64,000 bases of DNA, taken from the NCBI GenBank assembly GCA_947627975.1, contig CANQYB010000001.1, positions 7,997 through 71,996 on the forward strand, written 5' to 3'. Made by a program: the position numbers and the translations under genes. This DNA comes from an uncultured Bacilli bacterium (lineage in GTDB: Bacteria; Bacillota_I; Bacilli_A; RF39; UBA660). Under the pieces are notes generated by a model. The model was given only the letters and a program-made list of their open reading frames with translations. It was not told the origin of the DNA and ran no database searches. How positions within the stretch are numbered: the first letter of the stretch is position 1; the number at the start of each line of letters is the position of its first letter. Below, in pieces: positions 62,309 through 64,000 of this stretch.

Positions 62309-63499
62309 TTAATTTTGTAAAGCATTATAATTTTTTAATACTTCATCAGCATTTAATGCTCTACTATATACTTTTATATTAGATATTGTTCCGTTAAAAT
62401 TTGTTTCAGGATTCCAACAATAAGAAGAAGTTTCAGGAAATGAATCACATCCAATCATAAGTGGACTAGACTCTGAATGTAAAATCGGTTTTTTTTCATC
62501 GGAAAGATGCACACTTGGTTTTATTTCTTCTCCATTTACATATAATCTTAAATCAAGTCCATCATATGTTCCTACTATATGATATTTAGTATTTATATTT
62601 ATAGGTGCTTGTATTTTAGAATACCATTGATTATGTGCTGTATAAACTGAAAATACTAAAGACTGACTTTCACTTTCATAAATAAAGCCATATCCTCCAT
62701 TTTCTACACTATCTAAAATAAAAACTCTTTTATTATCTTTTAAAATAAATTCAATTTCTAAACTTACATAATCATAATTTAAATATCCAATAAATGCATT
62801 ACTTCGATTATTTCTATCAAATGAAAGTCCTTCACTTGTTTTTGTTGCACCTTCTACTTTTCCATTATATCTATTTCCTGATTTGTCTATTAATGTTTCA
62901 TCGGCATTTTCTAAACTTCTTTTATTATATAATAGTTCTAAGCCTTCTCTTACTATACTTTTGTCTTTTTCTTCATAACTTCCACTTTCTTTTATTCCTA
63001 TTGTTCCCTCGATTGTTAATCCTTGATTATAATCTTGGTTTTCTTTTGTTTCTTTTAATTGAAAAGTTATTTTATATGTTTGAGTTTCTTTACTTTTTAT
63101 TGTTTGCCCTTTTATTATTCCTAAGTTTTCTCCTGCTTCTGGTACTTTACTTTCAGTAAGGCCTTTACATCCACTTGTACATGTTATTGTGTATACTAAC
63201 TCATCTTTTAATATTTCATTATCAAGTTTTAACCACACTAAATCATATGTCACATCTACACTTCCAGTATTTTCTACTGTTACTTCTTTTGTCTTACTCC
63301 ATCCAGGACTTATTTCCGTAGCGTTAAATGAAGGTGTTTTATCTGAAAAACTTAAAGATAATGTTCCGGTTTTAGTTACTACATTTTCTGCATTTGTATT
63401 TCCACTTATTGTTGCACTAAAGTAGGCATAAGAACTTCCTACTATTAAAATACTTATTAAACACATTGTAATTATTAATATTATATATTTTTTCTTCAT
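62309..63499 (-). CDS. secreted SipW-cognate-signal / LamG-domain protein, paralog 2
   Basis: Same N-terminal 230 aa as 13755..14924, with a divergent C-terminal LamG-like half '...NFNGTISNIKVYSRALNADEVLKNYNALQN'. Confidence 0.7.
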   Translation of the reverse strand: MKKKYIILIITMCLISILIVGSSYAYFSATISGNTNAENVVTKTGTLSLSFSDKTPSFNATEISPGWSKTKEVTVENTGSVDVTYDLVWLKLDNEILKDELVYTITCTSGCKGLTESKVPEAGENLGIIKGQTIKSKETQTYKITFQLKETKENQDYNQGLTIEGTIGIKESGSYEEKDKSIVREGLELLYNKRSLENADETLIDKSGNRYNGKVEGATKTSEGLSFDRNNRSNAFIGYLNYDYVSLEIEFILKDNKRVFILDSVENGGYGFIYESESQSLVFSVYTAHNQWYSKIQAPININTKYHIVGTYDGLDLRLYVNGEEIKPSVHLSDEKKPILHSESSPLMIGCDSFPETSSYCWNPETNFNGTISNIKVYSRALNADEVLKNYNALQN

Positions 63500-63515
63500 T
63501 TTTTTACCTTCTTAA
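62810..63515. repeat. about 700-bp direct repeat copy B (matches 14235..14940)
   Basis: About 97% identity by eye over the 5' half of the gene and about 15 bp of 5' UTR. Confidence 0.85.
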
Positions 63516-63519
63516 GTGT

Positions 63520-63547
63520 ATTATATAATACTACCCCCCCCAGTCAA
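63520..63547 (-). promoter_or_regulatory. near-consensus sigma-A promoter with G8 homopolymer in the 16-nt spacer
   Basis: The minus strand reads TTGACT-GGGGGGGGTAGTATTA-TATAAT, about 20 nt upstream of the ATG of 62309..63499. The plus-strand C8 run is at 63534-63541. Confidence 0.5.
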
Positions 63548-63584
63548 GAAAGTGTTTATAAGTTTAATTAAAAAATTTAATAAA

Positions 63585-64000
63585 TTAATTAAGATCTGTA
63601 GTCTTTTTTAAAGTACAAAAATTTTTACAACCACCTACTGGCTTCCCTGTTGTATCTACTGTAATATTATTTTTATCTTTACCAGTTGCAGAATATCCAT
63701 TATTATCATTTGTAATATTAATATAATTTATTTTTCCATACTCGTCAAAATTTATACATGCATGATATCCCTTTTTGTTACTTACATATTTACTTTCAGC
63801 TAATGCTACATAAGAAATTGTACATGATTCTGTTAGATCTGATGCAATATAAGCATTTTCTGCTGCTCTAACAATAGATGTTGCTTCATCTTTAAAAGCG
63901 TCTTTTCTGGCTTTATTCATTATGTTTAAAACACTTGGAAGTGCTATTAAAATTAATACTGACAATATAACAATAACAGCTAGTAATTCTATTAATGTAA
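63585..64000 (-). CDS. type IV prepilin-like protein, paralog 2 (N-terminus beyond window end)
   Basis: The minus-strand frame is open to the window edge, encoding '...TLIELLAVIVILSVLILIALPSVLNIMNKARKDAFKDE...', about 80% identical to the 22701..23165 product over the pilin core. Confidence 0.65.
   Translation of the reverse strand, partial: TLIELLAVIVILSVLILIALPSVLNIMNKARKDAFKDEATSIVRAAENAYIASDLTESCTISYVALAESKYVSNKKGYHACINFDEYGKINYINITNDNNGYSATGKDKNNITVDTTGKPVGGCKNFCTLKKTTDLN

Follow-up and report, generated by a model that had tools for sequence, protein, structure and literature searches.

A family of putative modular TasA-superfamily adhesins in uncultured gut Bacilli, with concerted evolution and inter-species cassette exchange

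Most work on TasA-family proteins concerns homopolymeric scaffolds of biofilms whose genes lie in sipW operons. In TasA itself the donor strand is formed by residues 28-38, right after the SipW cleavage site (PMC9674648). TafC of haloarchaea, in which a pilin-like N-terminal domain is combined with a laminin-G domain, has been modelled as the tip subunit of Tat-fimbriae, or tafi (PMC11821415). Here we describe two paralogous genes in 64,000 nucleotides (nt) of DNA from an uncultured bacterium of the Bacilli (contig CANQYB010000001.1, positions 7,997 to 71,996; G+C content 22.7%), a stretch referred to below as the window. Their products join a TasA-superfamily N-terminal module (N-module) to a C-terminal LamG domain, and comparison with related genes shows that they belong to a TasA-superfamily family, putatively of modular adhesins, which evolves in concert and exchanges its lectin cassettes between species. 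The two genes are as follows.

13755..14924, minus strand: copy 1 (protein P0005, 389 amino acids), open reading frame (ORF) encoding a TasA-like N-module and LamG
62309..63499, minus strand: copy 2 (protein P0001, 396 amino acids), complete ORF with its own promoter, encoding a TasA-like N-module and LamG

The likeness to TasA, CalY (camelysin) and BsaA resides in the N-module, a predicted β-sandwich that Pfam family PF12389 (Peptidase_M73; TasA/camelysin) matches above its gathering cutoff of 22.5 bits (38.8 bits for copy 1 and 36.9 for copy 2), the match being confined to residues 1-84 and to profile positions 2-79 of 196. When a profile of the N-domain was compared with all solved structures it matched only TasA (8aur and 5of1; E ~1e-4) and, weakly, the archaeal protein AbpX (E ~0.3). 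The family also shares with TasA a G-x-x-[YW]-A motif followed by an aromatic residue at P2′ and, in structure models, an apparently unstructured segment after the signal peptide at the position of the TasA donor strand. In contrast with TasA, however, the present genes are not part of a tapA-sipW-tasA or bsa-type operon but are solitary among housekeeping genes; the sandwich comprises ~125 rather than ~210 residues; and the family displays a C-terminal LamG fusion, several paralogs per genome and concerted evolution.

Similar to TafC, the proteins have a predicted N-terminal pilin-like β-sandwich with a candidate donor strand and a C-terminal laminin-G-like domain, and the TafC model NF052521 gives weak matches to the LamG part. 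TafC, however, is an archaeal, single-copy protein with a Tat (twin-arginine) signal, encoded in the taf operon together with the peptidase TafD, whereas the signal described here is lysine-rich and of the Sec type. A polymerization module fused to a lectin module is likewise a feature of the bimodular type IV pilin PilC of S. sanguinis (lectin module PDB 7oa7), FimH and PapG. These proteins rely on a type IV pilin helix or on chaperone-usher assembly instead of a TasA-type module, and in FimH and PapG the domain order is reversed.

With respect to gene organization, the Neisseria opa and Mycoplasma vlp, vsa and vsp families consist of complete paralogs that are scattered singly and in which conserved 5′ and 3′ frameworks surround variable regions, as is the case here. 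Mosaicism in families of the opa/vlp type arises through intragenomic and horizontal recombination, and in vlp a poly-A tract is located in the promoter spacer, comparable to the G8 tract of copy 2 (see below). The protein families are unrelated, however, the hosts in the present case are walled, spore-forming Bacilli, and switching by tract length is here only a candidate mechanism.

Concerted evolution and exchange of LamG cassettes

The strongest direct repeat of the window, D1, was identified by a repeat search and pairs 14235..14940 with 62810..63515 (706 nt, 97.4% identity, 48,575 nt apart). It spans the ribosome-binding site and codons 1-229 of both copies, within which 18 of 687 nt differ (97.4% identity). 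An earlier reading of this DNA from its letters alone (the sequence-only reading) had placed the repeat at the same coordinates with an identity of about 97%, and alignment agrees with it. On its length and identity, the repeat cannot have arisen by chance. In a global alignment, blocks of 50 nt are 90-100% identical from 14939/63513 to ~14240/62815, after which identity falls sharply to ~55%; upstream of the ATG, similarity reaches just ~15 nt into the 5′ untranslated region (UTR), where the copies share the ribosome-binding site. As the LamG domain begins at around residue 184, the 97% tract ends inside LamG, at an FDG-x-ND motif, and not at the domain border. The LamG core (codons 230-365) is 57.5% identical at the nucleotide level, and identity is back to ~84% over the last 100 nt of the alignment, where a second conserved block, absent from the sequence-only reading (D5; 13750-13843 against 62307-62400), comprises the final 94 nt at 87% identity. 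For the encoded proteins, identity is 72% across the full length, 97% in residues 1-229 and 30% in residues 230-366; thus, the proposed divergence of the C-terminal halves holds, although at a slightly lower figure than the ~40% estimated by eye. The components of the two genes are listed below.

62810..63515, minus strand: 5′ tract of copy 2 that has been homogenised with that of copy 1, including the ribosome-binding site and codons 1-229; 97.4% identical to 14235..14940, synonymous divergence (dS) 0.067
14235..14940, minus strand: homogenised 5′ tract of copy 1, defined by the repeat and the alignment
62405..62812, minus strand: cassette region of copy 2, variable, codons 230-365; nt identity with the P0002 cassette of the other species 97.5%
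13844..14234, minus strand: cassette region of copy 1, variable; nt identity with its counterpart P0009 in the other species 92.6%
62307..62400, minus strand: conserved 3′ arm of copy 2, last ~30 codons and stop; codons 366 to the end 100% identical to locus L001
13750..13843, minus strand: conserved 3′ arm of copy 1 (D5)

The sequence-only reading also raised the possibility that the repeats could delete the intervening 48 kb. As essential genes, among them ruvAB, tRNA synthetase genes and the dcw cluster for cell division and cell-wall synthesis, would be lost, such a deletion is implausible as a stable outcome.

It could be argued that the identity of the 5′ parts reflects purifying selection on the encoded protein. 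Such selection cannot remove synonymous differences, however, and dS between the copies is only 0.067 in codons 1-229 compared with 0.54 in codons 230-365. Purifying selection was therefore rejected as the cause, and the near-identity of synonymous sites points to gene conversion, and not recent duplication, as the origin of the 5′ repeat.

This view is consistent with the wider gene family. The full architecture (TasA-like module plus LamG) occurs in just about a dozen proteins, from uncultured, very AT-rich, spore-forming Bacilli of the rabbit gut, and these fall into two N-terminal types: type A, MKKKYIILIITMCL…, which is that of the window, and type B, MGKKRMVALIIIGIM…. We term the host of the window species A and the related lineage with the type-B N terminus species B. 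Two type-A proteins are encoded on the 72.8-kb contig from which the window derives and the others on three further NCBI contigs. In species B, LamG copies occupy at least five separate loci, solitary among housekeeping genes.

Species-B locus behind rplQ, where the gene forms a tandem pair with the non-LamG paralog P0014
Species-B locus between spoIVA and the HU gene
Species-B locus after ezrA
Species-B locus before ffh
Species-B locus between ABC-transporter genes and uvrC (P0002, L001)

Within a lineage the N-terminal parts (residues 1-229) are 95-100% identical, compared with 76-78% between lineages, where the first 60 residues share only 50% identity (codons 1-60, ~61% nt identity). The LamG cores, by contrast, pair across lineages (P0001 with P0002, 95%; P0005 with P0009, 94%; P0003 with P0008, 84%; P0007 with P0010, 68%; P0006 with P0011, 64%), and different cassette types are only 26-57% identical. 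The N-terminal and C-terminal similarity matrices are thus incongruent, the N halves grouping by genome and the LamG cores by cassette type. The non-LamG proteins P0013 (type A) and P0014 (type B) have in common with the LamG copies only the lineage-specific first 55-60 codons (92-95% nt and 94.5% protein identity), while their bodies are ~78% nt identical to one another. Taken as sequence patterns, these properties are those of a multigene family evolving in concert through gene conversion. The sequence-only proposal of recombination or gene conversion between a conserved 5′ part and variable 3′ parts is therefore upheld by the dS contrast, by the incongruent matrices and by a cassette that has been replaced at a fixed locus, as described below.

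To what extent cassettes cross species borders can be judged against housekeeping DNA. Window positions 1-5292 (tsf′, rpsB, obg and a gene for a Polysacc_synt-family membrane protein) are colinear with the lineage-B locus L029 at 72% nt identity (protein identities: RpsB 74%, Obg 61%, Polysacc_synt-family protein 67%), a value indicating that A and B are different species. Between copy 2 and P0002 (L001), identity rises from 60-70% in nt 1-220 through 82% in nt 220-340 to 92-100% in nt 340-1180, with ~100% in nt 460-940 and flanks that are ~50-65% identical; copy 1 and P0009 display the same pattern. These profiles indicate that divergence in the promoter and the first ~75 codons resembles that of the genome, and that the remainder, including the cassette, was recently exchanged between species. 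Vertical descent of the LamG cassettes was rejected because they are 93-100% identical between genomes whose housekeeping genes share 72% nt and 61-74% protein identity.

Exchange is also apparent between strains. Two strains of species B, represented by L001 and L003, agree at 99.6% of positions in the 5.9 kb downstream of the gene (uvrC onward) and at 85-100% across gene nt 260-680, but at only 50-68% across gene nt 680-1117, which is exactly the cassette; the L001 cassette is the one common to species A at ~100%. The junctions cross short conserved arms (at most ~100 nt) into unique sequence, making assembly error unlikely, and on this sequence evidence the difference is a cassette replacement at a fixed uvrC-adjacent locus. 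A second pair from two different samples, L011 (ERZ27249032 NODE_17) and L012 (ERZ27249041 NODE_5), in which the gene starts at 8001, displays no mismatches in the upstream 8 kb (polA, fpg, rpsD, ezrA) and is identical through the first 350 nt of the gene. Thereafter L011 continues with the P0010 cassette and ffh, and L012 with the P0011 cassette and a PNP_UDP_1-family gene. The junction of P0011 with PNP_UDP_1 is seen again in L005, and a LamG gene followed by ffh again in the distant relative L004, which lends both 3′ junctions independent support. We do not accept this pair as proof of chromosomal rearrangement, for a reason given with the alternative readings.

On these observations, the genes consist of four zones. 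The first (promoter, 5′ UTR and approximately codons 1-75, containing the signal peptide, the candidate donor strand and the first strands) is species-specific and kept near-identical among the paralogs of a genome by conversion; the second (approximately codons 110-229) is conserved across all copies and species; the third (codons 230-365) is the LamG core, a cassette existing in several old and very different types; and the fourth, the last 30 codons, is conserved everywhere. The second and fourth zones provide the homology arms through which cassettes move, by homologous recombination, among paralogs, strains and co-resident species.

Protein architecture and proposed function

Both proteins are predicted to comprise a Sec signal peptide with the TasA-type motif …GSSYA|YFSA… at its end, a flexible segment of ~20 residues, a TasA-superfamily β-sandwich of ~125 residues, a short linker and LamG. 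In copy 2 these elements are located as follows.

63425..63499, minus strand: signal peptide, codons 1-25, MKKKYIILIITMCLISILIVGSSYA; cleavage before YFSA predicted by analogy with TasA
63362..63424, minus strand: candidate donor-strand segment, codons 26-46, YFSATISGNTNAENVVTKTGT; within the species-specific head
62984..63361, minus strand: predicted TasA-superfamily β-sandwich, codons 47-172, with a near-invariant Cys107/Cys111 pair
62312..62950, minus strand: LamG (concanavalin-A-like lectin) domain, codons 184-396

The C-terminal part is matched by Laminin_G_3 (PF13385) above cutoff (63-65 bits; 65.2 for copy 2) and has the LamG β-sandwich fold, which assigns it to this lectin family. At the N terminus (MKKKYIIL…), which is lysine-rich and of the Sec type, no twin-arginine motif was found. 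Both predicted structure models contain a helix at residues 2-20/23, in the signal-peptide region, followed by coil at residues 24-48 in both monomer models; codons 26-46 have a predicted local distance difference test score (pLDDT) below 50 in the full-length AlphaFold2 model. In the N-domain profile alignment, codons 26-46 coincide in position with TasA residues 28-47 (TasA residues per PMC9674648). Phe at P2′ is the feature to which TasA owes its poor performance as a LepB substrate (PMC10269814), and the SYA|YFSA site of the present family has Phe at P2′, as TasA does; the motif [ST]YAYF is present in 87 of 144 family representatives. The sequence-only assignment of this N terminus to the TasA/camelysin class thus finds support in PF12389, in the structure profile, which matched only TasA and AbpX, and in the parallel between SYA|YFSA and the TasA cleavage region.

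The N-module extends far beyond the LamG fusions. With its profile, 4909 representative clusters are retrieved at E ≤1e-3, of which 462 reach E ≤1e-30, and the module is always at the N terminus (residues 1 to ~177), and PF12389 matches 72 of 104 wider family representatives. Stand-alone proteins of at most 200 amino acids, nearly all of 170-195, account for 20 of the top 144 representatives, while other fusions carry DUF285, BspA-type leucine-rich repeats, CarboxypepD_reg, Listeria-Bacteroides repeats and similar domains. A scan of JGI metagenomes returned only generic LamG C termini and no close relatives. One stand-alone TasA-like protein, P0046 (172 amino acids), is encoded at L029 8001..8519, where its gene follows tsf on a species-B contig that also contains P0011; it is carried by at least 17 contigs, from several samples. 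By synteny this site corresponds to the left edge of the window. As the window begins inside tsf, any species-A ortholog would sit just outside it. P0020 is uninformative as a species-A stand-alone subunit, as it lies on a 1-kb contig.

In some metagenomic proteins (P0016-P0018) the same N-module is fused to Hint/intein-type domains (PF07591, PF14890), and at L004 2624..4048, a second gene of the metagenome-assembled genome (MAG) Lapin-025 bin65, it precedes an unrelated C terminus of 300 amino acids. These fusions suggest that the N-module serves more generally to deliver or assemble a variety of cargo, polymorphic-toxin-like proteins possibly among them.

The interpretation that we favour, and regard as moderately probable, is that the genes form a multi-copy family of recombining TasA-like/LamG proteins that act as lectin-bearing adhesin subunits of a donor-strand fibre. 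In such a system a peptidase, possibly of the SipW type, would cleave the signal behind SYA; residues 26-46 would act as the donor strand; and the N-module would plug into a TasA-like donor-strand-complemented fibre built from a stand-alone subunit of ~172 amino acids, a protein of the kind seen in the sister species. This would leave LamG exposed as the adhesive part, in the manner suggested for the tip adhesin TafC of haloarchaeal tafi, and the paralogs of a genome could constitute a repertoire of glycan-binding specificities. The species-specific head would ensure that cassettes acquired from elsewhere still work with the host's own machinery for assembly and processing, and the fibre-adhesin interpretation would thus account for the association of a uniform, species-specific head with a freely exchanged binding module. 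We advance more tentatively, as a possible but doubtful extension, that gut Bacilli possess an undescribed adhesin system of TasA-type fibres with interchangeable lectin tips, a cassette pool shared between species and a poly-G switch for each copy; this would represent a Gram-positive, TasA-based analogue of the Neisseria opa and Mycoplasma vlp repertoires.

This study extends our understanding of the TasA superfamily by suggesting that the TasA-type N-module is a portable assembly handle that is fused to lectin or other adhesin domains, most of the 4909 clusters being uncharacterised, and that in one sub-family the handle evolves in concert while the lectin is exchanged as a cassette, across species too. 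If the fibre-tip model is true, the principle of the modular pilin or tip adhesin exemplified by FimH, TafC and S. sanguinis PilC would extend to TasA-type fibres in Firmicutes, and the rule would be that donor strand and signal stay native while the binding domain is exchangeable.

Alternative readings

The main rival to the fibre-adhesin interpretation is that the family consists of monomeric lectins or carbohydrate-binding proteins, either free or associated with the wall, in which the TasA-like domain is a non-polymerising stalk or spacer; the recombination pattern would be unchanged. Several negative results weigh against the fibre and some of them speak for its rival. No sipW or S24/S26 peptidase gene was found in the window by a six-frame scan for the S-x-S-M-x-P motif or by Pfam, no signal peptidase is in the Pfam lists for the flanks of related loci, and the linked sipW that typifies the TasA/camelysin superfamily is thus missing from both. 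Neither a tapA-like gene nor a stand-alone subunit was found in the window, and a homolog search returned no species-A ortholog of P0046 from the 72.8-kb contig; indeed no copy has sipW, tapA or a major-subunit gene beside it. The more specific models also fall short: the SipW-cognate signal model TIGR04088 scores 15.6 and 15.0 bits, just below its cutoff of 19, the BsaA model TIGR04090 28.8 bits (cutoff 60), the NCBIfam TasA model is below its cutoff, and NF052521, which has a cutoff of 410, reaches ~20 bits and covers only the LamG part, so that the proteins are not TafC members and the resemblance is architectural. In addition, the N-domain of ~125 residues is far smaller than TasA, and SYA|Y is also compatible with an ordinary type I signal peptidase site. 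It should be emphasized, however, that a stand-alone N-module of ~172 amino acids, found in the same lineage and many others, fits a self-assembling subunit better than a spacer, that the segment after the signal is unstructured in the monomer models where TasA has its donor strand, and that the head is homogenised even into a non-LamG paralog, which suggests a shared interaction partner. We therefore consider the monomeric lectin rather unlikely, though a serious competitor.

It could also be argued that the near-identity is artefactual, reflecting collapsed or chimeric short-read repeats, or that it stems from a young tandem-like duplication with a fast-diverging 3′ half. All sequences are short-read metagenome assemblies (MAG contigs), in which the collapsing of bulges may inflate the identity of repeats. 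All five species-B copies have zero differences from nt -41 to 352, a finding that reflects either very rapid homogenisation or assembler collapsing, and over nt 353-494 the haplotype tracks the sample and not the locus. Moreover, one and the same upstream stretch of 8 kb is followed by different 3′ halves in L011 and L012, and as a perfect shared repeat of more than 350 nt could mislead an assembler, these alternative joins could be path choices. In MAG Lapin-016 bin18, which is 97-99.6% identical to species-B contigs, four contigs break off inside the 5′ tract of the gene. Such breaks are expected when a repeat that exists in several near-identical copies is assembled from short reads, and they support the multi-copy reading of the family; as a practical warning, such repeats break short-read MAG assemblies or may mis-join them. 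The two copies of the window, however, are on one contig and differ at 18 scattered positions, and so are not one collapsed edge; the same architecture recurs across independent assemblies and bins; and the L001/L003 swap can be read through its arms into unique sequence. With respect to a young duplication, the cassette types are common to species at 72% genome identity and yet mutually divergent, indicating old paralogs with young 5′ parts. Artefact or young duplication is thus very improbable. A further proposal concerns two pilin genes.

22701..23165, minus strand: type IV prepilin, 154 amino acids, G|FTLIELL; N_methyl 38 bits, TIGR02532 33.9 bits; 7.8 kb from copy 1
63585..>64000, minus strand: type IV prepilin-like gene adjoining copy 2; 5′ end cut by the window edge

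The gene at 22701..23165 encodes a bona fide type IV prepilin, as the sequence-only reading had maintained, with N_methyl and TIGR02532 above cutoff and a class III signal (G|FTLIE); the call at 63585..>64000 rests on homology to it, the cleavage motif lying beyond the window. That reading went on to propose that pilin and LamG genes were duplicated together as a two-gene module. Extended to function, this would imply that a type IV pilus or pseudopilus helps to export or assemble the TasA-like protein. In its favour, one pilin gene adjoins copy 2 and another lies within 8 kb of copy 1, the layout originally described, with adjacency confined to locus 2, and pilin-like genes occur 6-7 kb from the LamG gene in L002 and L011. 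There is also a precedent in C. perfringens, in which the PilA3 type IV pilus system is needed for BsaC to be secreted and for BsaA oligomers to be secreted efficiently (PMC11580942). The two pilin genes, however, are ~88% identical over the first 120 nt (the conserved N-terminal helix) but ~65% beyond, and their 71% identity over 300 nt, set against 97% for the repeat, indicates that they were not duplicated with it. A neighbouring pilin gene is present in none of seven related loci (L001, L002, L004, L009, L010, L011 and L012), P0002, the cassette ortholog of copy 2, instead lying between ABC-transporter genes and uvrC. The Pfam search found no type IV pilus machinery (pilB, pilC, pilD) in the window; thus, of sipW and pilD, which had been singled out as genes to look for, neither is in the window. 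Finally, the best named match of the pilins is ComGC, and with comEA and comEC in the window competence pilins are the simpler reading. The co-duplicated module is thus largely refuted and, as a functional unit, improbable, both pilins being probably outside the adhesin system, although a looser functional link between pilin and LamG protein could still exist given the C. perfringens precedent.

The comEC (Competence plus Lactamase_B) and comEA (SLBB plus HHH) genes are located at 33068..35747 on the minus strand. Together with the solitary ComGC-like pilins they hint at natural competence, a possible route of inter-species cassette exchange.

Promoter and other features of the window

Copy 2 is preceded by the highest-scoring sigma-70-like site of its region.

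63520..63547, minus strand: sigma-70-type promoter of copy 2, TTGACT, 16-nt spacer, TATAAT; 11 of 12 consensus matches
63534..63541, minus strand: G8 homopolymer between the -35 and -10 elements of copy 2, a candidate slipped-strand tract

The G8 tract is the sole G/C run of at least 6 in the 64 kb, where ~0.005 such runs are expected by chance. The same promoter layout, TTGACC followed by G8 or G9, is found upstream of species-B paralogs, with the tract in the equivalent spot in L001/L002 (9951), L011/L012 (7951) and the end of L009 (8634), while two other paralogs have an interrupted G-rich spacer that is 1 nt shorter. The difference between G8 and G9 among loci is a substitution, the spacer length being the same, and no length polymorphism of the tract at a given locus was seen in the few assemblies at hand. 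Judged on its position, the tract may serve as a phase-variation switch, which we offer as a hypothesis only. Copy 1 starts 27 nt past the ruvB stop codon; no promoter-like site was found between ruvB and its ATG, where the ribosome-binding site is all that it shares with copy 2.

The window contains further features of interest. A gene for a penicillin-binding protein (PBP; SpoVD/PBP2B-like, dcw cluster) is split into 38417..39502 (plus strand), which encodes PBP_dimer and the first third of the transpeptidase, and 55419..55808 (plus strand), which encodes the transpeptidase end and PASTA. The insert of ~16 kb (~39.5-55.4 kb) contains genes for DUF5655, a Gp10_C baseplate-like protein, an RHS-repeat protein of 2016 amino acids and a TraG/VirD4-like coupling protein, with a large serine recombinase (53261..54982) beside the 3′ PBP fragment. 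The insert has the appearance of either a sporulation intervening element of the skin type or an integrated mobile element. The RHS-repeat gene (41972..48022, plus strand), with a weak ricin-lectin match, is followed by three small ORFs for membrane or unknown proteins, which are bracketed by D9, a 48-nt direct repeat (48056-48103 and 51331-51378; 94% identity) with a hairpin-like palindrome. This layout resembles that of a toxin with immunity genes. Elsewhere, among housekeeping genes, 5286..6404 (minus strand) encodes a protein of 372 amino acids with a Cadherin-like β-sandwich domain, possibly a surface protein.

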